Made by a program: the position numbers and the translations under genes
Shown here: one piece after another, positions 2,782 to 58,676 of the stretch
Layout: every line of letters begins with the position of its first letter
How positions within the stretch are numbered: the first letter of the stretch is position 1
The notes under the pieces: generated by a model
Database searches by the model: none
What the model was told of the DNA's origin: nothing
What the model saw: only the letters and a program-made list of their open reading frames with translations
Source of the DNA: Bacteroidetes bacterium MED-G17
GTDB taxonomy: Bacteria > Bacteroidota > Bacteroidia > NS11-12g > UBA9320
Assembly (NCBI GenBank): GCA_002457675.1
Contig: NTKK01000006.1
Location: 11,742 to 75,741 of the forward strand
Length of the DNA stretch: 64,000 bases
Reading direction: 5' to 3'

Positions 2782-3707
2782 AAACAGATTTACTTCAAAA
2801 AAATAGCCAAGAAGTGAAGAGCATTGCCCAGTCATTGGGCTTTGAATTTTGTGGAATTGCTAAGGCAGAAAAGTTGGTTGAAGAAGAAAGTAGATTAGAA
2901 AGCTGGCTTAATCAGAAGCATCATGCAAGCATGCAGTACATGGAAAATCACTTCGAATTAAGATTAGATCCAACCTTACTTGTTCCCGGGGCCAAAACGG
3001 TCATCTCATTAATGTATAACTATTTTCAACAAGCTCGACCTAAGAGCGAAAAGGGGTACAAAATCGCTCAATATGCTTGGGGAAAAGACTACCATAAAGT
3101 AGTCAAGAAAAAATTACAAGAATTTATAATGCAATTGAATCAGTCAATTGGGCAGGTAAATGGGCGGGTTTTTGTCGATTCTGCGCCGATTTTAGAAAGA
3201 TCATGGGCAGCTCGGTCAGGGCTTGGCTGGGTAGGTAAAAATTCAATGCTGATTAATAAAAAAAAAGGCAGTTTTTATTTTTTGGCAGAAATAATTTCAG
3301 ATTTGGAGGCATGGCCTGATATACCAGATACTGACCATTGTGGTACGTGCACGGCGTGTATAGACGCTTGTCCAACAGATGCGATTTTGCCAGAAAAAAA
3401 TATCAATAGCAACAATTGTATTTCTTATTTCACCATTGAACACAAAGACAAAATAGGGCCGCATATGTCAGGTAAAATGGATGACTGGATTTTTGGTTGT
3501 GATATTTGTCAAGATGTTTGTCCTTGGAATCGCTTTGCTCAAAAGCATCAAGAACCCAAATTTGAAGGGCCAAAAAATAACCTATCAAAGACAGATTGGG
3601 AAGAGATGACCCACGAAGTATTTAATGAAATATTTGCTGGTAGTCCATTGAAACGTGCTAAATGGGAGGGGATAAAAAGGAATATTTTGTTTAACAAAAA
3701 GGCTTAA
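2778..3707 (+). CDS. queG: tRNA epoxyqueuosine(34) reductase QueG
   Basis: Two 4Fe-4S ferredoxin motifs ([12 protein letters not shown] and CDICQDVCP) and a DUF1730-like N-terminus. Overlaps the ruvB stop by 4 nt. Confidence 0.85.
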
Positions 3708-4444
3708 AAGTTAAACATGTTGGGAAAATTTTTTGATACCATTTGTGCGGTATCTCCGGGTTTATGAATCTTATGAAAATATCGAAGCGGTAGCTGGCTG
3801 GCGTCAGAAAAAAGCTTGGATAAATCAACATTTATGTTTAACTCTTTTTTTTGGCTTAGCCCCTGGTTATTTGTCAATTTATTGGGCAATGTTAAACGTA
3901 TTTCTTGAGCTGTTTCTTGGCCAGATTTATAGCCTCCGATGTGCATTGTCACCCCTTCATTTGGACTACTAGGGCTATTACCTTCCAACTTAAAATTTAT
4001 GTAGCCTGAGTTCATTTGCCAGTACATTGGATCTATAAACTGGTCATTAAGCCCGCCGTTAATGTTTATAGTTGAATCTCTAACACCAAGATCAAAGGCC
4101 AGTGACACAAAATCGTCAAGTGGGAATGTTCCTAATTCAATTTGGGTGTTTCCTGTGGCAGGGTTTATCAGGGCATATTTATTTTCAAACCTATACGTTG
4201 TGCCATCTTCAGAAATTAACTGGAAATTATTTACATGGTAAATCAACTTAGAAGGAGTAAAAGAATCGCCATTACTGGTAAGATAAGTTTGGTTATCAAA
4301 TACAAGCTTTTCATTGTCAAAATTGTGCGAAAAGCCAATCATCAAAATTTGCTTGTATTTCTTTGGGTCTTCATCATTACACTGAATAAATGATAAAGCA
4401 GCCGGTACCAAAAAAAGTAAAAAGTAATTAAGGCGCATTCCCAA
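3704..4444 (-). CDS. hypothetical secreted protein / lipoprotein
   Basis: Signal peptide with a lipobox-like FIQC. No motif I can assign with confidence. Transcribed divergently from crtZ. Confidence 0.45.
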   Translation of the reverse strand: MGMRLNYFLLFLVPAALSFIQCNDEDPKKYKQILMIGFSHNFDNEKLVFDNQTYLTSNGDSFTPSKLIYHVNNFQLISEDGTTYRFENKYALINPATGNTQIELGTFPLDDFVSLAFDLGVRDSTININGGLNDQFIDPMYWQMNSGYINFKLEGNSPSSPNEGVTMHIGGYKSGQETAQEIRLTLPNKLTNNQGLSQKKELNINVDLSKLFSDASQLPLRYFHKIHKPGDTAQMVSKNFPNMFNF

Positions 4445-4479
4445 AGATAATCAAATGATTTAAGGAGATAAAGTGTAAT

Positions 4480-4506
4480 TTGACTTTGTTTAATTTTTAA
4501 AGTCAA
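4480..4506. promoter_or_regulatory. Perfect inverted repeat TTGACTTT-N11-AAAGTCAA in the crtZ/divergent-gene intergenic region; candidate operator
   Basis: Read directly from the sequence: 8-bp arms, 11-bp AT spacer, about 40 bp upstream of the crtZ ATG. No flanking T-run on either strand, so it is not a terminator. Confidence 0.45.
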
Positions 4507-4516
4507 AAAATGAACA

Positions 4517-4524
4517 TAAATTTG
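4517..4524 (+). promoter_or_regulatory. Candidate Bacteroidota sigma-A -7 box (TAAATTTG) for crtZ-crtB
   Basis: Exact match to the TAnnTTTG consensus, 22 nt upstream of the crtZ ATG. Confidence 0.35.
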
Positions 4525-4546
4525 GTGCAATTGTAAAAATAAGACA

Positions 4547-4987
4547 ATGAAATTATTTTTCATCTTTGTTACGTTTTGTTTTATGGAGTTTATGGCATGG
4601 TTTACGCACAAATTCATTATGCATGGCTTTATGTGGAGATGGCATAAATCACACCACAGTGTGCACAAACAAGTTTTCGAAAAAAACGACCTATTTGCAG
4701 TAGTATTTGCCCTTGTCTCGGCGGGGCTGATAGTACTTTCAAGCGAAAAAATAATTCCATCAATATTCTTCGAAATCGGTATTGGAGTTTGTCTTTACGG
4801 GGTAGCATACTTTTTGGTTCACGATGTATTTGTTCATCAAAGAATCAAATGGCTTAGAAAGACAAATATTAAATATTTTAAAGCCATGAGAAAGGCGCAT
4901 AAAATTCACCATAAGACATTAACCAAAGATGGGGCAGAGGCGTTTGGCTTCTTATTTGTGCCCAAAAAATATTTGAGAAAGGTATGA
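4547..4987 (+). CDS. crtZ: beta-carotene 3-hydroxylase (fatty acid hydroxylase superfamily)
   Basis: Histidine boxes HKSHHS and HKIHH in a 146-aa membrane protein (WRWHKSHH), typical of CrtZ. Immediately upstream of phytoene synthase. Confidence 0.8.
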   Translation: MKLFFIFVTFCFMEFMAWFTHKFIMHGFMWRWHKSHHSVHKQVFEKNDLFAVVFALVSAGLIVLSSEKIIPSIFFEIGIGVCLYGVAYFLVHDVFVHQRIKWLRKTNIKYFKAMRKAHKIHHKTLTKDGAEAFGFLFVPKKYLRKV

Positions 4988-5829
4988 AAAATGCAATTAA
5001 ATTATACAATGAAGTCTCTCTCGAATCGAGCAAGCTTACAACAGAAAGATACAGTACCTCTTTTTCAGTTGGCATTCGTTTAATTTCTGGTGAATTAAGG
5101 TGGGCTATTTATGCTTTGTATGGTATGGTTCGTTATGCAGACGAAATTGTAGATACCTTTCACAATCAAGATAAAGGTCTTTTGTTAAATGATTTTGAAG
5201 CGCAGACCTATGAAGCAATTGAGCGAAAATTTTCAACCAACCCAATTTTACATGCTTACCAAATGGCACATCATCAATTTTCTATTGATCAAGCGCTAGT
5301 AAAGTCCTTTTTTGAGAGCATGAAGATGGACTTAGAGCAAAAAGTACACGATAAAGATTCATATGATACGTACGTATATGGAAGTGCCGAAGTAGTAGGG
5401 TTGATGTGTTTGCATGTTTTTACCGAGGGGAATAAAAAATTGTTTAATGACTTACTGCCCAACGCTAGAGCCCTTGGTTCGGCCTTCCAAAAAGTAAATT
5501 TTTTAAGAGACCTTAAGAGCGATTTAGAAGAAAGAGGAAGACTGTATTTCCCAAATGTGAACTTCACCAATTTCTCTGATGAAGACAAACAACAAATTAT
5601 TCAAGAAGTAAAAGAAGAGTTCAAGCATGCGTTAAGCGGGATTAAAAAATTGCCTTTATCCTGCAGATTTGGCGTTTATACCGCGTATAAATATTACCTC
5701 AAACTTTTGGTAAAAATCGACAGTAAGCACAAAGAAGAGCTTTTGGAAAAGAGAATTAGAGTGAATAATGCTCAAAAAGTATGGGTGCTTGCCAAAAGTT
5801 TTTCAAGGTACCAGCTAAATCTACTTTAA
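4984..5829 (+). CDS. crtB: phytoene synthase (squalene/phytoene synthase family)
   Basis: Isoprenoid synthase motifs YGMVRYADEIVD and the second Asp-rich region. 281 aa. Start overlaps the crtZ stop by 4 nt. Confidence 0.85.
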   Translation: MKNAIKLYNEVSLESSKLTTERYSTSFSVGIRLISGELRWAIYALYGMVRYADEIVDTFHNQDKGLLLNDFEAQTYEAIERKFSTNPILHAYQMAHHQFSIDQALVKSFFESMKMDLEQKVHDKDSYDTYVYGSAEVVGLMCLHVFTEGNKKLFNDLLPNARALGSAFQKVNFLRDLKSDLEERGRLYFPNVNFTNFSDEDKQQIIQEVKEEFKHALSGIKKLPLSCRFGVYTAYKYYLKLLVKIDSKHKEELLEKRIRVNNAQKVWVLAKSFSRYQLNLL

Positions 5830-7061
5830 ATAGAGAAATAGGTTGGCGGAATTAAAAAGTCAATTTCCTTAATTTTTATATTGAATTTATTTCCCAACAA
5901 TTCATTTGTAAGATGACCTTTATAAAGGTACGTTCCCATGCGCATACCTTTATGATGAGAAATATAAGTTTCTAAATCACCATATTTTGCCCATTCAATA
6001 AATATGCCTGTAAACAAATTACTTAAAGCATAGCTAGCAGTTCTTGCTACGCGGCTTGGAATATTTGGCACACAATAATGAATTACATCAAACTTCTCGA
6101 AAACGGGCTCGTGATGGTTGGTAATTTTTGATGTACTGAAATTTCCGCCCCGATCAATTGCAACATCGATAATCATTGACTTTGCTTTCATCTGTTGCAC
6201 CATTTCTTCACTTACAACGCATGGAGACTCCGCTTTTCGCATGGCCATAGCGCCTATGGCAACATCTGCATTTTGAAGCGCTTTAGTCAGCAATTCAGGT
6301 ATAAGCGTGGAAGTATGAATTCTATTGCCTAATTTTTGTTCCAGATTCTTGAGACGAAATACAGAATTGTCAAAAATACTTACAGAAGCACCTACACCCA
6401 AAGCAGTTTTGGCGGCATGTTCTGCAACTGTACCCGCTCCTATAATTACAACTTGTGTTGGGTGTACACCAGAAATGCCACCCAAAAGTTCGCCTTTCCC
6501 ATATTGTTGGTTGGTTAGGTATTCTGCCGCGATAAATACGGCAGCTTTTCCGGCAATTTCACTCATTGTTTGTGTAAAGGGAAAGCTGCCACCTTCGTCT
6601 TCAATAAATTCATACGCCAATGCGTTTATCCTTTTCTGCATCATACTCTGCATACAATCTTCCTTGATATCAGCAAGTTGTACCGCGCTTATGAGATTTT
6701 GTCCTTCCTTAAGGTGTACAATTTCTTCCTGTGTTGGTGGGTCAATTTTTAATATGGTTTGACATGCATAAATTTCTTTTTGACTGTTTACAATTTCTGC
6801 TCCTGCTTCGCTGTATTCCATATCAGAAAAATGTGCTTGAAGGCCTGCACCTTTTTCTATCTTGAAGATATAGCCATATTCAGTAAGTAATTTCAGCGAT
6901 AAAGGCGTAAGTGGAACTCTTTTTTCTTGATAAGTAATTTCTTTAGGTATGCCTATTTCTATGCCCTTTTGCTTTGTATCAATAGGTAAAAGTTGTTCCT
7001 TTGGCTGAATAGAAGATTCTTGCATGATTTTTTGAAATGTTTTTTTGGATTGTTCAGCCAT
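5826..7061 (-). CDS. ald: alanine dehydrogenase (AlaDH/PNT family) with N-terminal extension
   Basis: NAD-binding VIIGAGTVAEHAAKTALGVGASVSIFD and an AlaDH/PNT N-domain. Stop codon overlaps the crtB stop (convergent). Confidence 0.75.
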   Translation of the reverse strand: MAEQSKKTFQKIMQESSIQPKEQLLPIDTKQKGIEIGIPKEITYQEKRVPLTPLSLKLLTEYGYIFKIEKGAGLQAHFSDMEYSEAGAEIVNSQKEIYACQTILKIDPPTQEEIVHLKEGQNLISAVQLADIKEDCMQSMMQKRINALAYEFIEDEGGSFPFTQTMSEIAGKAAVFIAAEYLTNQQYGKGELLGGISGVHPTQVVIIGAGTVAEHAAKTALGVGASVSIFDNSVFRLKNLEQKLGNRIHTSTLIPELLTKALQNADVAIGAMAMRKAESPCVVSEEMVQQMKAKSMIIDVAIDRGGNFSTSKITNHHEPVFEKFDVIHYCVPNIPSRVARTASYALSNLFTGIFIEWAKYGDLETYISHHKGMRMGTYLYKGHLTNELLGNKFNIKIKEIDFLIPPTYFSI

Positions 7062-7159
7062 AATTTATGCTCTCAAATTAGTCTAATTTTATATAAATCC
7101 CCAAAAAAACAGTCTATGTTGGCAATTCACAATACAAAAATTAAGTTTTATATTCATAT

Positions 7160-8272
7160 TTGTTTCAAGTGATTAGGTTTATTCTTATTCTTTGCGTGTT
7201 TAGTTTTTCTTGTACGAGGGCGAGTAACTTGACTGAAAAAGATGAAGATCATTTGGTCGTTTTTCCGAGTGGTTCACTAAATGTGACCGAGGAAATCTTT
7301 TACAACAAGATGAACAAGCTCGAATTTGAGGTGCCCATGGTGTATAATGAACAAGTAGCAAAGTTCATCGACTTTTTTGCCATCAACTGGCAACCGAGAC
7401 TTAAAGAAGTATTGAGCCTGTCTGAACATTATTTTCCCATCTACGACAAAATTTTTGATCAGTATGACATTCCTTACGAAATAAAATATCTGTCGATAAT
7501 TGAATCAGCTTTAAATCCTAAAGCTGTTTCGCGGTCAGGTGCTGTTGGTCTTTGGCAGTTTATGCCTGCAACGGGTAAACTTTATGGTTTGAAAAATACT
7601 TATGAAATTGATGAAAGAAGCTCCATCGAAAAATCTACGGAGGCTGCGGCTAAATATTTGAAAGAATCTTACAAACGTTTTGGAGATTGGCATTTGGCTT
7701 TGGCAAGTTATAATGCTGGCCCTGGAGGTATTGCCCGTGCTATGAGGAGATCAGGCGGGGAAAATTTTTGGGAAATTCAACCATTTCTATATAAGGAAAC
7801 ACAAGATTATATTCCAAAATATATAGCTATGGCATACATAATGAATACCTATAAGGAGTACGGCATTACAGCCAAAACCAGTGATATTGACTTACATAAT
7901 TTAACAACGGTTGCTTTAGGGGACATTTACTTCCTTGATGACTTGGCAAAGGTGTTAGAGGTAAAGGTGAGCACTATAAAATCTTGGAACCCTGAGTTGA
8001 AGTCCGATCGTTTACCCTCAAAAAGTTATGCTTTGAGACTACCCGAAGATTATAGTTATAAGATACTTGAAAGAAAAAATGTGCTTATGGATTTAAACAA
8101 GATTTCTACTGTGGCTAGGGTACCAAAATATTATTTCCATACGGTAAAAAAAGGGGAATGTTTACCTTTAATCGCAAAGCGGTATAAAATTACTGTTGGG
8201 CAATTAAAAACTTGGAACAGCTTACACAGCAGTCTAATTTTTCCCAACCAAAAATTAAAAATTTATAAGTAA
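7160..8272 (+). CDS. lytic transglycosylase (SLT domain) with C-terminal LysM domains, MltD-like
   Basis: SLT catalytic motif ESALNPKAVSRSGAVGLWQFMP...AYNAGPGGIARA, plus two LysM-like repeats at the C-terminus. Start is TTG. Confidence 0.8.
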   Translation: MFQVIRFILILCVFSFSCTRASNLTEKDEDHLVVFPSGSLNVTEEIFYNKMNKLEFEVPMVYNEQVAKFIDFFAINWQPRLKEVLSLSEHYFPIYDKIFDQYDIPYEIKYLSIIESALNPKAVSRSGAVGLWQFMPATGKLYGLKNTYEIDERSSIEKSTEAAAKYLKESYKRFGDWHLALASYNAGPGGIARAMRRSGGENFWEIQPFLYKETQDYIPKYIAMAYIMNTYKEYGITAKTSDIDLHNLTTVALGDIYFLDDLAKVLEVKVSTIKSWNPELKSDRLPSKSYALRLPEDYSYKILERKNVLMDLNKISTVARVPKYYFHTVKKGECLPLIAKRYKITVGQLKTWNSLHSSLIFPNQKLKIYK

Positions 8273-26443: not shown

Positions 26444-28357
26444 ATGAGTAAAGTAATAGGTATAGACCTTGGAACAACCAATTCTGTGGTTAGCGTTATG
26501 GAAGGTAACGAACCAGTGGTTATTCCCAACAGCGAAGGCCGACGAACCACACCAAGTATCGTTGCTTTTTTGGATAATGGTAATGGAGAAAGAAAAGTGG
26601 GCGATCCAGCGAAAAGACAAGCCATTACCAATCCAGTAAACACCATTAGTTCTATAAAGCGATTTATGGGAACACGGTTCTCTAAACTAAAAAAAGAAGC
26701 AGAAAGAGTTCCTTACAGCGTTGTAGAAGGTTCAAATGATACGCCGAGGGTGTTAATTGGTGATAGAAAATACACCCCACAAGAAATATCAGCTATAATT
26801 CTTCAAAAAATGAAAAAAACTGCAGAAGACTATCTCGGTACTTCTGTAGAAAGAGCAGTAATTACTGTGCCGGCATATTTCAACGACAGCCAAAGACAAG
26901 CTACTAAAGAAGCGGGAGAAATTGCTGGTTTTAAAGTAGAAAGAATCGTAAACGAACCAACGGCTGCGGCCTTGGCTTATGGTCTAGATAAAAGAAATAA
27001 AGATATGACCATTGCTGTCTATGATCTCGGAGGTGGAACCTTTGATGTGTCAATCTTAGAGCTAGGCGATGGAGTATTTGAAGTAAAATCTACCAATGGA
27101 GACACACACCTTGGTGGAGATGATTTTGATCAAGTTATTATAAATTGGCTCGCAAATGAGTTCTATAGTGATGAGAATATGGAACTAAAGAAAGATCCTG
27201 CTGCATTACAAAGACTGAAAGAGGCGGCAGAAAAAGCCAAAATTGAACTTTCTAGTTCTGCTGAAACAGAAATCAACTTACCATACATAACTATTAAAGA
27301 CAATGTTCCAAAGCATTTGGTGCGCAAACTAACTCGTGCCAAATTTGAGCAACTGGCAGACGAATTGGTGCAAAGAACATTGGAGCCATGTAAGCAAGCA
27401 TTGGCAGATGCAGGACTCAAAATTGCTGAAATAGATGACATAATTTTGGTAGGAGGTTCTACACGAATTCCTAAAATTCAAGAAGAAGTACAGAAGTTCT
27501 TTGATAAAGAGCCTTCAAAGGGTGTTAATCCCGACGAAGTTGTAGCAATTGGTGCAGCAATTCAAGGCGGTGTGCTTACTGGCGAAGTAAAAGATGTTTT
27601 GCTTTTAGATGTAACACCACTCTCATTAGGTATAGAAACACTTGGTGGTGTTATGACCAAGCTTATTGAATCGAATACAACTATCCCCACCAAGAAGTCT
27701 GAAACATTTAGCACAGCAGCAGACAACCAACCCTCTGTGGAAATTCATGTTCTACAAGGTGAAAGATCAATGGCCAAGGACAACAAAACCATAGGAAGAT
27801 TTCACTTAAGCGACATCCCACCGGCACCAAGAGGCGTTCCACAAGTTGAAGTTACTTTTGATATCGATGCCAACGGAATTCTCAATGTGAGTGCGAAAGA
27901 CAAAGGAACAGGTAAAGAGCAGAAGATAAAAATTGAAGCTTCCTCTGGATTAAGTGAAGAAGAGATTGAAAAAATGAAGAAAGAAGCTGAAGCCAATGCA
28001 GATTCGGATGCCAAAGCCAAAGAAGAGATTGATAAGTTTAATGCAGCCGATGCTTTGGTGTTTTCTACCGAAAAACAATTAAATGAATTTGGTGATAAAA
28101 TCCCAGCGGACAAAAAAGACAAGATTACCAAAGCCACAGATGCTTTGAAAAAAGCACATTCCGATAAAAACCTGGCTGATATTGAAAAATATACAGAAGA
28201 ACTCAACACTGTTTGGCAAGAAGCCTCACAAGATATTTATCAAGCGCAGCAAGAAGCGGGTGGTGCACCCAATGCGGAAAATGGTAGCCAAGAGAGCAAT
28301 CCAAATCCCAACGAAGATGGTGATGTTCAAGATGCAGATTTTGAAGAAGTTAAATAA
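26444..28357 (+). CDS. dnaK: molecular chaperone DnaK (Hsp70)
   Basis: [32 protein letters not shown]; 637 aa. Confidence 0.97.
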
Positions 28358-28379
28358 ACATAAAAATTCACAAACAACA

Positions 28380-28404
28380 AAACCCGCTTTTTGCGGGTTT
28401 TTTT
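28380..28404 (+). terminator. Rho-independent terminator after dnaK
   Basis: AAACCCGC-ttttt-GCGGGTTT stem-loop followed by a T-run, 23 nt after the dnaK stop. Confidence 0.8.
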
Positions 28405-50131: not shown

Positions 50132-50614
50132 TTGAATATTGAAATAAAAGAAAAAGTCAAAGAAATTTTCACCACCTATTTGGAAGAAAGAGGACAAAGA
50201 AAAACGCCAGAAAGGTATGCAATACTTGATGAAATATATTCCAAAAAGAGCCATTTTGATGTAGATACGCTATACATTCAAATGAAAAATAGAAATTATC
50301 AAGTAAGCAGAGCAACAGTCTATAATACGCTAGATTTATTATTGGACTGTAGCCTTGTGATCAAGCACCAATTTGGGCAAAATGTAGCCCAATTCGAACA
50401 GGCATATGGTTATAAACAACATGACCACCTAATTTGTACGGCTTGCGGAAAGGTAAGCGAATTTTGTGATCCCCGAATTCAGCAAACCTCTTCTATGGTG
50501 GGCGATTTACTGAAATACGAAGTGAAAAGTCATTCTTTAAGTTTGTATGGTAAGCCAAAGGTAGATAAAGATGGGTTGTGTGAAGTTTGTGATAACGAAG
50601 TAATGATTGATTAG
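50132..50614 (+). CDS. fur: Fur family transcriptional regulator
   Basis: Winged-helix segment YNTLDLL, HxH motif and CxxC pairs (CTACGK, CEVCD). Confidence 0.85.
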
Positions 50615-51885: not shown

Positions 51886-52461
51886 TTGATTCATTTGTAT
51901 GAAAAAACAGAAGGTCAGTTGGTTCATAAAAAACCACTAAAATTGGCTGGACGTAAGCAAGGGATACTATACCAACACAGAATTAAGGTAAAAAAAATTA
52001 ATCAACATTCGTTTTACTTAAAAGTAAATAAGCTCTTTCCAAAAACAAGTAAAGTTGTATTATGCCCGCTACCATCAACTGTTAGTGAGCAATTATTTTT
52101 TGAACTAGACGAATTATATGGTTATTCTTATCATGGAAATATTTATTTGATGTTGGTATTTTATTTCTTAGATAAAGGCAGTCAAAATAAAAACATTTCT
52201 TCAAGTAGAGGTGATATGCATTTTTCAAATCTAAAAATCGAAGGTAAATTTATAGATGATCGTTGGGAGGGAAGCTTAAATTATATTGACCCTTCACCAG
52301 TATACTACCAAACTTTTGACCAAGAGGTTGCAGCTTTTTACCAAAAAGTTCTTTCCAAAAGAATAAAAAAATCAAATAAAAATTATTTCCTCAGTGGGTT
52401 TCCAAATTTTCGAAATATTTCCAATAAAAAAATATTAAGTAAGAGTAAATCATACAAATAA
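51886..52461 (+). CDS. hypothetical protein (doubtful; TTG start; antisense-overlaps the next gene's 3' end by 79 nt)
   Basis: Open frame only. Lys-rich, no motif. Positioned 6 nt after purA. Confidence 0.25.
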   Translation: MIHLYEKTEGQLVHKKPLKLAGRKQGILYQHRIKVKKINQHSFYLKVNKLFPKTSKVVLCPLPSTVSEQLFFELDELYGYSYHGNIYLMLVFYFLDKGSQNKNISSSRGDMHFSNLKIEGKFIDDRWEGSLNYIDPSPVYYQTFDQEVAAFYQKVLSKRIKKSNKNYFLSGFPNFRNISNKKILSKSKSYK

Positions 52462-53075
52462 AATGCGTCATCAAGAGGTATTGAGCCCATTCTAATATTC
52501 ATATTTTCAAGATCATTGTACCAAACTACAGGAAGTTTTGTAAGGACCCCATTAACAAGAAAAAAAGGAATTAAACTAAAAAAATATCCGTAGTAGAAAT
52601 GGGGAAGCTTGATTTTTTTGAATAAAACCATTGTCGATACGGTTAGAACAAGTTGAAGGATAGCAGTAACGTTAGTGTATAATTGGTCTTGAAAATAAGT
52701 ATAATTATATAATGCAATTAAGAAAAATGCTAGATGCAATGAAAAGGTAATATGCTTATTGAGCCCATTTGGGAAATAAAACTTACAAACTTCATAAATG
52801 AATATACAAGCTAAAGGAATGACAAAAAAGAATAAAATTTCTTCAATCGGAAGCAGCCAGATTCTTATACCCAAAAAATAGTTGTTATTAAAGCCCCAAA
52901 TACCCTCCTCTGTAAACCAAATATCCCAAAGGATAAAAATGATGGCTGTAATTAAGGTAGACAATAAAAAATCTTTCCACTTTTTGTCCAACTTTACCCG
53001 AGAATCATACCATTTTCTGAGTGGATAATATAAAGTGAATATTAATAATCCTAGATAGACGAATTGATTCATCAA
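52383..53075 (-). CDS. lycopene cyclase domain-containing protein (CrtYcd-type carotenoid cyclase)
   Basis: Two repeats of the cyclase-domain signature: WDIWFTEEGIWGFNNNYFLGIRIWLLPIEEILFFFVIPLACIF and GSIPLDDAFYLYDLLLLN. About 7 TM helices, 230 aa. Start overlaps the upstream ECF sigma stop (ATGA). Confidence 0.7.
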   Translation of the reverse strand: MMNQFVYLGLLIFTLYYPLRKWYDSRVKLDKKWKDFLLSTLITAIIFILWDIWFTEEGIWGFNNNYFLGIRIWLLPIEEILFFFVIPLACIFIYEVCKFYFPNGLNKHITFSLHLAFFLIALYNYTYFQDQLYTNVTAILQLVLTVSTMVLFKKIKLPHFYYGYFFSLIPFFLVNGVLTKLPVVWYNDLENMNIRMGSIPLDDAFYLYDLLLLNIFLLEIFRKFGNPLRK

Positions 53076-53602
53076 TTTTTTTCCTTTAACCCATAATCAT
53101 GGGCATAGGAACGAAGATGCTTTCGTAATTTTCTTTTTGCAACAAAAATTCGAGTTTTGACTGTACCAATAGGAATATTTAGTATATCCGCTATCTCGTG
53201 GTATTTGAATCCCTGCCTGTTATAGTTAAAAGTTACTTGTAAATCTTCTGGCAGTTGTTCTATGGCATATTCCATATCTCTTCGAAGAAAATTATTGGTA
53301 CCTTTATTTTCGGTATAATAACCTTCAATGTCCATATGATAAGTACTGTCTGTTGTGTCGATGAAGGTATTTCGCTTTACTATTCTTCTATAATTATTAA
53401 TGAAACTATTTTTCATAATTGTGTATAGCCAACCCTTTAAATTGGTGCCCTCTTTAAATTTACTCTTATACGTAAACGCTTTTAACATAGTTTCCTGAAC
53501 CAAATCTTTTGCATCTTCAAAATCTTTAGTTAACTGAAGGGCATAATTCATTAGCGGTCTTTCTTGCTGCTGAACTTGTTTATCAAAATCTACGGATGTC
53601 AT
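53072..53602 (-). CDS. RNA polymerase ECF-type sigma-70 factor
   Basis: Region 2 (LMNYALQLTKDFEDAKDLVQETMLKAF...WLYTIMKNSFIN) and region 4 (HEIADILNIPIGTVKTRIFVAKRKL); 176 aa. Confidence 0.85.
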   Translation of the reverse strand: MTSVDFDKQVQQQERPLMNYALQLTKDFEDAKDLVQETMLKAFTYKSKFKEGTNLKGWLYTIMKNSFINNYRRIVKRNTFIDTTDSTYHMDIEGYYTENKGTNNFLRRDMEYAIEQLPEDLQVTFNYNRQGFKYHEIADILNIPIGTVKTRIFVAKRKLRKHLRSYAHDYGLKEKN

Positions 53603-53733
53603 TTTATTTGATTCAAATCTATGAACAAATATTTTCTTTACCTATATTTTGTTTAAACTTTTTTTTATTTAGTTAAACAAAAATTTAATGGATAAAAAAG
53701 GAATCACGCATAATTATTATTATATATCACTGA

Positions 53734-53751: not shown

Positions 53752-53860
53752 CTTAAAATGAAAATGATGAGGGATAAGATTTGTTTATCTTGTTATATTT
53801 ACTGTTTAAACAAAGACAAATAAACTAAAACTTTTCGGCTTAGGATTGTTTGCTATATAC

Positions 53861-57212: not shown

Positions 57213-58676
57213 ATGAATAAAGTAGGTATAGACGATATGGCAGTTTATGTACCAAAAATATTTTTGGACATTGGTGAATTGGCAAAAAATCGCGGAATCG
57301 AAAAAGAAAAACTTCAGAGGGGATTGGGCTTAGAAAAAATGGCATTACCTGATACCTACGAAGACGCAGCAACCATGGGTGCAAATGCCGTGCTTAGTTT
57401 GATGCAAAAAAACAGCTTAAAGCCTCAAGATTTAGGCAGAATATATTTGGGGACTGAAAGTGCGCTAGATGGAGCAAAGCCAACATCCACTTATATTTTA
57501 CACATGCTAATTGATTTTTATGCACCTGAATTTGGCGAAGACTGTTTCAATCAGTGCGATGTTGTAGATATGACTTTTGCTTGTATTGGGGGTGTAGACG
57601 CATTGCACAATACTTTGGACTGGGTGGGTAGTGAAAGTGGAAAGGTTGGTATTGTAGTGACCGCGGATTTTGCAAAATACGACTTGCATTCTTCAGGAGA
57701 ATATACCCAAGGAGCTGGCGCTATAGCGTTGCTTATTAAACAAAATCCAAGATTAATTTCTATAGACGAAACGTGGGGTATCGCTACAAAACCAGTTCAT
57801 GATTTTTTCAAACCGAGGAGAGTCAAAAGTAAATTTAAACTGTTTAAAGAGTCATTAGAACTTGTAGGAATCGAAAGCCAAAAGATTGATGAAATATGGA
57901 ATTCTTTAGATAACTTAAGTAAACAAAAATATCTTGGTGTAGATGAAGACAACATAGCAATTTTTAAGGAAACACCTGTTTTTGATGGACAGTATTCTAA
58001 TGACTGTTATAAAAATAGAATTAACGAAGCGTATAAAAATTTCCAAAAGAAAAACCCAAAATTTTCTCTAGAAAATTGGGATTTTTTGGCATTTCACTTG
58101 CCATATGCTTTTCATGGAAAGAGAATTTTTACAGAAATTTTCATTCAATATTTATTAGGTACAAACCAGATGATACCCTTTTTAAAGGAAAACCATCTCC
58201 CGGTGGATGTGCATGATTATGATAGCCCCGAATTTGTAAAGAGTATTTATAAATCAAAGGGGTATAAAGCTTTCACAGATGAAAAAATGAGGTATGCATC
58301 AAAGGCCTCCTCAGAAGTTGGCAATATGTATGCTTGTTCTATTTTCCTTTCACTGGCTAGCATAATTGTTTGTAGTGAAGAAAGTGGTATGGATTTACAA
58401 GGAAAAAAAATAGGCTTTATCGCTTATGGAAGTGGCTCAAAGTCAAAAGTTTTTTCTGGGACCATTGGTAAGAACTGGCGACAAGTATCTAGAAATATTC
58501 AGCTTTTTGAGCAATTGCAAAAAAGAAAAGGCCTTTCTTACGAAACTTATGAAGCCTTACATAGAGAACAATTCAATACAGTGGTAAATAAACCGGTCAA
58601 TTGTTTTGTCAGAAAAGAAATTTTTACGGAGAAAGGTGTTAGGGAAGGCATGCGTGTTTATGGATTTGAGGAATGA
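57213..58676 (+). CDS. mvaS: hydroxymethylglutaryl-CoA synthase (mevalonate pathway)
   Basis: VGIDDMAVYVPK N-terminus; thiolase-fold active-site context (...MTFACIGGV...); 487 aa. Confidence 0.8.
   Translation: MNKVGIDDMAVYVPKIFLDIGELAKNRGIEKEKLQRGLGLEKMALPDTYEDAATMGANAVLSLMQKNSLKPQDLGRIYLGTESALDGAKPTSTYILHMLIDFYAPEFGEDCFNQCDVVDMTFACIGGVDALHNTLDWVGSESGKVGIVVTADFAKYDLHSSGEYTQGAGAIALLIKQNPRLISIDETWGIATKPVHDFFKPRRVKSKFKLFKESLELVGIESQKIDEIWNSLDNLSKQKYLGVDEDNIAIFKETPVFDGQYSNDCYKNRINEAYKNFQKKNPKFSLENWDFLAFHLPYAFHGKRIFTEIFIQYLLGTNQMIPFLKENHLPVDVHDYDSPEFVKSIYKSKGYKAFTDEKMRYASKASSEVGNMYACSIFLSLASIIVCSEESGMDLQGKKIGFIAYGSGSKSKVFSGTIGKNWRQVSRNIQLFEQLQKRKGLSYETYEALHREQFNTVVNKPVNCFVRKEIFTEKGVREGMRVYGFEE

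Follow-up and report, generated by a model that had tools for sequence, protein, structure and literature searches.

The DNA analysed here, referred to as the window, is a 64 kb stretch (34.8% G+C) from the marine metagenome-assembled genome (MAG) species 'Bacteroidetes bacterium MED-G17', in which a two-gene carotenoid operon is read from the forward strand. Its first gene, crtZ (4547-4987), is named beta-carotene hydroxylase after homologues that carry PF04116, and overlaps by 4 nt the phytoene synthase gene crtB (4984-5829; PF00494, E = 1e-44). Unlike many of its close homologues, the window CrtZ itself has no Pfam or NCBIfam match at E <= 0.001 in family scans. A divergent intergenic region of 102-107 nt separates this operon from an mbnP-like lipoprotein gene on the reverse strand (3704-4444; PF20243, E = 2e-34; probable ATG at 4439-4437), and within it lies a perfect inverted repeat, with its left arm TTTGACTTT at 4479-4487 and its right arm AAAGTCAAA at 4499-4507. 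A first-pass annotation had seen in it the geometry of an operator to which a dimeric repressor would bind. Here we consider the palindrome together with two other promoter elements, a candidate promoter of the kind read by extracytoplasmic function (ECF) sigma factors (M1) and an inverted-repeat dyad (M2), and with an ECF sigma factor gene about 49 kb away, which appear to form the conserved part of the regulatory arrangement.

The palindrome consists of two inverted half-sites in dyad symmetry, with perfect 9-bp arms around an 11-nt loop. The 8-bp arms of the first-pass annotation (TTGACTTT-N11-AAAGTCAA) are present at 4480-4506, although the arms are really 9 bp long. Its placement of the repeat about 40 bp upstream of crtZ-crtB matches the 39 nt measured from the repeat end to the crtZ ATG (4547), and it correctly reported that no regulator gene adjoins the operon, whereas the overlap that it saw with a -7 box has to be withdrawn, as that box starts 10 nt beyond the repeat end. 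It had also stated that the repeat is not a terminator, and we agree: an intrinsic terminator is ruled out by the absent T-run, the weak AT stem, the divergent flanking genes, and the fact that no gene ends there. A terminator scan at the palindrome returned nothing terminator-like, and folding of the DNA gives a weak hairpin (-6.2 kcal/mol, z = -2.3), with just two G-C pairs in its stem. Repeats of this kind are also ordinary in DNA of this composition. Counting perfect inverted repeats with a minimum arm of 9 bp and a loop of 3-20 nt yields 15 positions in the window, where order-2 Markov simulations predict 14.3 +/- 4.1. The full palindrome pattern, allowing up to 3 mismatches, has two matches where 1.83 are expected, the second lying within a helicase gene with 3 mismatches, and the relaxed pattern TTGAC-N15-19-GTCAA, allowing one mismatch, has 12 where 12.4 +/- 3.7 are expected. 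Searched across the window, the palindrome half-sites were found at chance level only, and the additional copies for which the first-pass annotation had proposed to search did not appear beyond chance, including at the cyclase and sigma locus.

Comparison with related genomes points in the same direction. We fetched 176 loci, comprising 10 conspecific contigs that encode an identical CrtZ (among them L007, the reference MAG) and 166 loci from other species (L011-L176). Four of the latter (L011-L014) represent three sister species with CrtZ 80-83% identical and exactly the same gene order around crtZ (4/4), and a wider set of 80 crtZ loci came from a scan of species-representative genomes. The exact palindrome is present in 8 of the 10 conspecific contigs, and in the 140-nt intergenic alignment of these contigs the variable columns fall only inside the repeat. 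In this small sample, the two changed contigs are both altered within the repeat: L010 has a single-nucleotide polymorphism in one arm (TTGACCTT), and in L007 the loop is shortened to 10 nt by a change that also turns TTGTTTAA into TTGTTTTA, and so alters the left half of the M2 dyad described below. The exact palindrome is absent from all 166 other-species loci, and nothing resembling it was seen at the 80 more distant crtZ loci. A 52-nt block (4475-4526) aligns without gaps to the sister species at 79-83% identity, with further upstream sequence unalignable, and there the sister species read TTCATTTT...AAAGAAAA, lacking the GAC/GTC cores and allowing only five of the nine arm pairs. What the sister species keep in this block is TTTGTTTAA (4485-4493), an A-run, (T/G)AACAT, the -7 box, and TGTAA. 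Of the palindrome region itself, TTTGTTTAA (forward strand) is all that the sister species retain. Invariant in L011-L014 and fitting the half-site consensus TTTGTTTAAC, which was derived from regions upstream of sigma genes, it corresponds to the left half-site of an M2 dyad.

By every available test, then, the palindrome is not a conserved or repeated regulatory site. Footprinting of crtZ upstream regions, a check named in the first-pass annotation, leaves it without conservation in the sister species or at the distant loci, and its assignment as a dimeric-repressor operator is further undercut by the missing copies elsewhere in the window and by conspecific polymorphisms that disrupt it. 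Missing conservation and missing further copies, the latter as judged from the window, are both outcomes that the first-pass annotation had itself named as refuting its proposal. The palindrome is a true sequence feature, but probably a lineage-specific overlay without operator function.

The second locus of interest lies about 49 kb from crtZ-crtB. An ECF sigma factor gene (53072-53602, reverse strand; Sigma70_r2 and r4_2 domains, passing the ECF superfamily cut-off) is the first gene of an operon with a lycopene cyclase gene (52383-53075, reverse strand; two CrtYc/d-type domains, PF18916 E = 1e-32, TIGR03462). The two genes overlap by 4 nt, and a pair encoding PTPS (queD-like) and GTP cyclohydrolase I diverges from the sigma gene. 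Orthologues of this sigma factor are widespread, at 52-70% identity. Across 82 orthologous loci, with flanks of just 2.5-4 kb, a carotenoid gene adjoins the sigma gene in 31, in arrangements that include sigma-crtI-crtB (e.g., L096), sigma-lycopene cyclase (18 loci), and a crtZ or crtB gene close by, and the divergent PTPS-GTP cyclohydrolase I pair is found in 15. The sigma gene is thus physically linked to crt genes across Bacteroidota. No anti-sigma gene is visible next to it, either in the window or at orthologous loci. An HMG-CoA synthase gene (57213-58676), of the mevalonate pathway that supplies isoprenoid precursors, lies 3.6 kb from the sigma and cyclase locus. The first-pass annotation had named this sigma factor, at 53 kb, as one candidate partner; as a partner of the carotenoid genes it is credible given its operon with the cyclase gene, its linkage to crt genes (31/82), and the occurrence of M1 at 72 of 80 crtZ loci. 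Sigma factors read -35 and -10 elements, and it would not be the palindrome that such a protein binds.

The intergenic regions between the sigma and PTPS genes hold one to three copies of TTTGTTTAAC-N14-GTTAAACAAA, from which we define M2 as TTGTTTAA-N16-TTAAACAA, a 32-bp dyad with inverted half-sites of 8-9 nt and a gap of 16 (17) nt, located at sigma and crt promoters. Allowing up to 2 mismatches, TTGTTTAA...TTAAACAA forms 26 dyads in 15 sigma-PTPS regions, against 0.56 in shuffles (maximum 4), with 18 of the 26 having a gap of exactly 16; many of the related loci are phylogenetically non-independent, so that this and the other shuffle-based enrichments overstate the independent support. A position weight matrix (PWM) scan for dyads over the ~1.2 Mb (1.23 Mb) of fetched loci gave 107 sites of at least 19 bits, of which 53 have a gap of 16, 11 a gap of 17, and 10 a gap of 26-27. 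Nearly all of these sites lie within ~300 nt upstream of a sigma gene or at crtZ promoters, and the variants with gaps of 26-27 nt, one helical turn longer, bracket or overlap the crtZ M1 -35 element in two clades. An RNA hairpin was ruled out for M2, since half-site sequence is conserved and single changes are uncompensated, which argues instead for DNA recognition by a protein. In several relatives, a sigma-A -7 box runs into the left half of the sigma-proximal dyad (TAnnTTTG-TTTAAC), and this fusion, together with dyads that cover the short leader or start codon, favors a repressor.

In the window, where the null maximum of the M2 matrix per 64 kb is 9.4-21.9 bits with a median near 13.5, the best match is a perfect TTGTTTAA-N16-TTAAACAA upstream of the sigma gene (53649-53680; 27.9 bits), and a weaker M2-like dyad with a gap of 17 lies just upstream of the PTPS promoter (53781-53813; 18.4 bits). 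At crtZ, a degenerate M2-type dyad, TTGTTTAA-N16-ATGAACAT (4486-4517), scores 13.4 bits, and its sister-species counterparts (TTGTTTAA-N16-ATAAACAT) score 21.4-22.5 bits (L011, L013, L014). On this alignment M2 is the conserved dyad of the crtZ promoter, in a register that differs from that of the palindrome, with only TTTGTTTAA common to both. Its right half, which overlaps the AAAC/GAAC of the M1 -35 element, appears to have decayed in the MED-G17 species through an A to G change at 4512 (TAAACAT to TGAACAT). Judged by its pattern across species, M2 behaves like an operator. Another strong, near-perfect dyad, TTGTTTAAC-N14-GTTAAACAT (3687-3718; 27.0 bits, and 27.0-27.8 in the sister species), lies 799 bp from the crtZ site. 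Its center coincides exactly with the point where queG and the mbnP-like gene converge and their stop codons overlap. Its half-sites are identical in three sister species and its spacer is variable; the QueG and MbnP-like proteins both end in (L/M)-F-N, encoded by these half-sites.

M1, the other recurrent element, corresponds at crtZ to GAAC (4512-4515)-N16-TGTAAAA (4532-4538) on the forward strand (4508-4540), and was assigned there by its positional match to relatives. The TGT lies 15 nt before the crtZ ATG, with the same architecture and start-codon distance as in relatives. A pattern of AAC-N15-17-[TG]GT[TA] occurs within 110 nt upstream of the crtZ ATG in 72 of 80 loci, compared to 6.3 in shuffles (maximum 14). 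Of the 62 unique sites, 57 have a 16-nt spacer; most of the information resides in [A/C]AAAC[C]TTT and tTGTTtaa, and spacers vary freely. The downstream block mostly ends 3-7 nt before the ATG, and 15-18 nt before it in some clades; with the block placed ~12-16 nt ahead of the start codon, the mRNA would have a very short leader or none. The independent locus L176 carries AAAC-N16-TGTAATA, and several clades (e.g., L042, L047, L066, L070) have (C)GTGTTA or GGTTTAC as the downstream block with no TAnnTTTG nearby, so that a sigma-A promoter cannot explain their M1. ECF promoters combine an AAC -35 block with a spacer held strictly to 16 nt and with CGT or TGT at -10. CGT at -10 has also been used as a criterion for ECF promoters (PMC9723704). 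M1 thus has the architecture of a candidate ECF-sigma-dependent promoter, of which the window carries a weak copy.

A second M1 motif, AAAAC-N16-TGTTTGC (53824-53855, forward strand), precedes the PTPS-GTP cyclohydrolase I pair and is the top PWM match of the window, at 14.4 bits, a score that alone is not significant within 64 kb. The probable PTPS GTG start (53861) lies 5 nt past the motif, and the crtZ and PTPS copies in the window keep the same spacing to their start codons. Of 16 loci examined at the orthologous position, 5 have an M1 score of 14 bits or more, where 0.02 are expected, and 7 have one of 9 bits or more, where 0.27 are expected. Occurring at crtZ operons and at PTPS, M1 marks both the crtZ operons and the sigma-adjacent pterin operon. 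Matches to the M1 matrix ~650-800 nt upstream of the sigma gene in the soil-clade loci L127, L152, L154, L159, L165, L169, and L172 were rejected: they fall within the murB coding sequence (FKTFTKADCKF) and reflect protein conservation. The murB gene often neighbors both crtZ and the sigma gene.

Inside the M1 spacer at crtZ lies a perfect Bacteroidota sigma-A -7 box, TAAATTTG (4517-4524, forward strand), which matches the consensus TAnnTTTG and is kept in the sister species as TAAATTTG or TAACTTTG. The canonical spacing between -33 and -7 elements is 19-21 nt. No -33 TTG/TTTG element lies 19-21 nt upstream of this box, where 4493-4498 reads ATTTTT, and the nearest TTTG (4485-4488) is 28 nt upstream. 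In Bacteroidota, sigma-A promoters have been described as -33 TTTG / -7 TAnnTTTG, with the -7 box at -12 to -5, and Flavobacterium transcripts have a median leader of 24 nt, with ~5% of mRNAs leaderless (PMC9723704). The window box resembles these promoters in its exact match to the -7 consensus and in its suitable distance from the ATG, as it would give crtZ a leader of ~18 nt, near the Flavobacterium median. It is unlike them in lacking a -33 element at the canonical spacing and in standing inside the spacer of an AAC-N16-TGT motif. In the MED-G17 species, M1 and the -7 box are both possible promoters of crtZ.

These elements would fit together as a two-tier carotenoid and pterin regulon of Bacteroidota, a reading to which we assign a probability of roughly 0.45. 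It would comprise an orphan ECF sigma factor, a leaderless M1 promoter (AAAC-N16-TGTTTAA), and an M2-bound gate, plausibly acting as a light or photo-oxidative switch, and the crtZ operator of the MED-G17 species would be decaying, with the palindrome replacing it. A protein bound at M2 dyads would control the sigma gene, and many lineages would have crtZ under its direct control too; the sigma factor would then guide RNA polymerase to M1 at crtZ(-crtI)-crtB and at PTPS-GTP cyclohydrolase I. The -7 box may supply a second, housekeeping start ~18 nt before the crtZ ATG. Underlying this proposal are the observed motifs, with their spacing, conservation, enrichment, and positional orthology, and the linkage observed between the sigma gene and the crt and pterin genes. 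The linkage and the promoter type suggest that the sigma factor reads M1; we infer protein binding to M2, the sign of its regulation, and any link to light. The broader intuition of the first-pass annotation, of a regulated promoter with a factor acting in trans and a link to the ECF sigma factor, is therefore partly borne out, through elements other than the palindrome.

Control of carotenogenesis in two tiers would resemble LitR/LitS of Streptomyces. There, light-induced carotenogenesis runs through a LitR-LitS-crtEp cascade (PMC11519972), and FolE, a GTP cyclohydrolase I, belongs to light regulons of Pseudomonas (PMC9758184); these two precedents make light or photo-oxidative stress a reasonable guess for the signal. 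Like LitR-LitS (PMC11519972), the arrangement described here combines a dedicated ECF sigma factor linked to crt genes with special two-block crt promoters, and an operator-like site, rather than the sigma factor's own promoter type, precedes the sigma gene, which implies a second regulator above the sigma factor. The systems differ in promoter consensus (GCATCCR-N15-CVGAAD in Streptomyces, AAAC-N16-TGTT here) and in that the sigma gene is here co-transcribed with biosynthetic genes (cyclase or crtI-crtB). Moreover, no MerR/B12 regulator adjoins the sigma gene here. No regulator combining MerR and B12-binding domains is encoded in the window, and a motif scan found none beside the fetched crt and sigma loci; in just one related context was a MerR plus B12-binding gene seen, 3 kb away from the sigma gene. 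In Myxococcus xanthus, CarQ/CarR and CarH/CarA likewise combine an ECF sigma factor with an operator-binding repressor on carotenoid genes. CarQ, however, has an adjacent membrane anti-sigma factor, CarR, for which the sigma gene here has no adjacent counterpart, and the operator sequences are unrelated. No description of a carotenoid circuit based on an ECF sigma factor in Bacteroidota was found in the literature searched, and the circuit would be new within the known class of ECF-sigma-based carotenogenesis circuits.

Several observations weigh against the two-tier regulon with the palindrome as an overlay. The window crtZ M1 scores just 7.2 bits, below the 13.6 bits of the 5th percentile of training sites (sister species, 4.1-10.3), and the window crtZ M2, at 13.4 bits, is at the null level, its left half perfect and its right half with 3 mismatches; with both elements this weak, their assignment here rests on positional orthology with the sister species. 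Neither in the window nor in relatives was an M1 found ahead of the sigma gene; this gives no sign of autoregulation, which is atypical for ECF sigma factors. A regulator that binds M2 was not found among the fetched loci in the motif scan for MerR/B12 regulators. Next, the M1 -10 block (TTGTTTAA) equals an M2 half-site, with AAAC and GTTT being reverse complements of each other, so that M1 could consist of protein half-sites instead of being a promoter. Finally, the palindrome's differences from the sister species are to be weighed. Compared to L013, the window has nine differences in the 52-nt block, and five of these fall within the arms (4479, 4482, and 4484 on the left; 4503 and 4504 on the right). 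All five raise complementarity in the window, and the pair 4482:4504 is changed on both sides. As a neutral gain this pattern would be unlikely; it fits either selection for the palindrome in the MED-G17 species or its presence in the ancestor, followed by decay in the sister species. With no alignable outgroup, the direction of the arm changes is not polarized, and a gain in the window lineage could have come about through selection or through a mutational process, of which quasipalindrome correction is an example.

If M1 were made of half-sites, crtZ-crtB might be read only by sigma-A from TAAATTTG, and the AAAC...TGTTTAA of relatives would mark binding of the M2 protein instead of a promoter. 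Besides the identity of the M1 -10 block and the M2 half-site, this explanation is favored by the perfect -7 box conserved in the sister species and its 18-nt leader, by the fusion of TAnnTTTG to TTTAA in many relatives, and by the rarity (~5%) of leaderless mRNAs in Flavobacterium. We nevertheless consider it rather improbable, for whole clades (the L042, L047, L066, and L070 types) carry AAAC-N16-(C)GTGTTA/GGTTTAC without a nearby TAnnTTTG, the flanks of the two blocks are asymmetric ([A/C]AAAC[C]TTT and tTGTTtaa), orientation and ATG distance are fixed, and hallmarks of ECF promoters are present in the AAC -35, the spacer held strictly to 16 nt, and the CGT of some -10 blocks.

The palindrome itself invites two further explanations. 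It could be the genuine operator of a trans-acting regulator (TetR, MerR, or another dimer), specific to this species or genus and repressing or activating crtZ-crtB and/or the divergent mbnP-like gene. Like the palindromic operators of dimeric repressors of the TetR, MerR, and Fur types, it is a perfect dyad near or over a promoter in a divergent region, spanning -50 to -22 when numbered from the start that the -7 box predicts, and both the symmetry added by five of five arm differences, including the two-sided 4482:4504, and its integrity in 8 of 10 conspecific contigs would suit such a role. Unlike those operators, it comes without conservation, regulon, or cognate gene and varies within the species: it is no more frequent than expected by chance, with no second copy in 64 kb even at the sigma and cyclase locus, it is absent from the syntenic sister species and all relatives, and it is broken in each of the two conspecific contigs that show polymorphism. 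The window lacks genes of the MerR and TetR types, its candidate regulators being limited to a Fur-family protein and the sigma factor. A genuine operator is hence very doubtful. A functionless by-product of mutation in an AT-rich promoter is a far stronger contender, with a little less than an even chance. Here, five of nine ancestral pairs, formed by a T-run facing an A-run, would have been completed by chance or by template-switch correction of a quasipalindrome, template switching at quasipalindromes being an established mutational mechanism. The imperfect TTCATTTT...AAAGAAAA of the sister species, with 5/9 pairs, supplies a plausible starting point, the window count of perfect repeats equals random expectation, and within-species variation clusters in the repeat, which is what a hairpin prone to mutation would show. 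This by-product explanation is weakened by the differences from the sister species in both arms, as a single template switch rewrites just one, and by the unpolarized direction of change.

Other features of the two loci complete the picture of the window. In more distant relatives the operon is crtZ-crtI-crtB, and in the MED-G17 clade it is crtZ-crtB with an overlapping stop and start, from which crtI appears to have been lost; a MED-G17 CrtI protein was not among the 120 CrtI homologue matches listed. The MbnP-like protein has a signal peptide with a lipobox Cys, read from sequence. A gene for its partner MbnH (a di-haem peroxidase) is absent from the window, and in the unrelated locus L176 a CCP_MauG/MbnH-like gene (6104-7771) lies directly upstream of crtZ-crtI; with an mbnP-like gene beside crtZ here and an MbnH-like gene beside crtZ there, MbnP/H-type genes repeatedly neighbor crtZ. 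Beside the start of the mbnP-like (copper/iron-related) gene, a short palindrome, AATCAAATGATT (4450-4461), preceded by GATAAT, loosely resembles a Fur-type box. The window includes one Fur/PerR-family gene (50132-50614), whose product we set aside as a binder of M2 because the half-sites are unlike Fur/PerR boxes. Elsewhere, a 9-bp, G+C-containing inverted repeat (AAAACCCGC, 28379-28401) with a 5-nt loop lies just past the dnaK stop at 28357 and looks like an ordinary intrinsic terminator.

On its own, the palindrome is ordinary, at chance level, and species-specific, and should not be carried forward as a regulator site. The wider pattern has more to offer: in many Bacteroidota, among them abundant lineages of marine and fresh waters, carotenoid genes are accompanied by two sharply defined cis-elements and one sigma factor. 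The regulation of pigment synthesis in non-phototrophic and rhodopsin-bearing Bacteroidota is poorly known, and, if true, the two-tier regulon would provide testable targets in cultured relatives, namely the sigma gene, the promoter consensus, and the 32-bp dyad as bait.

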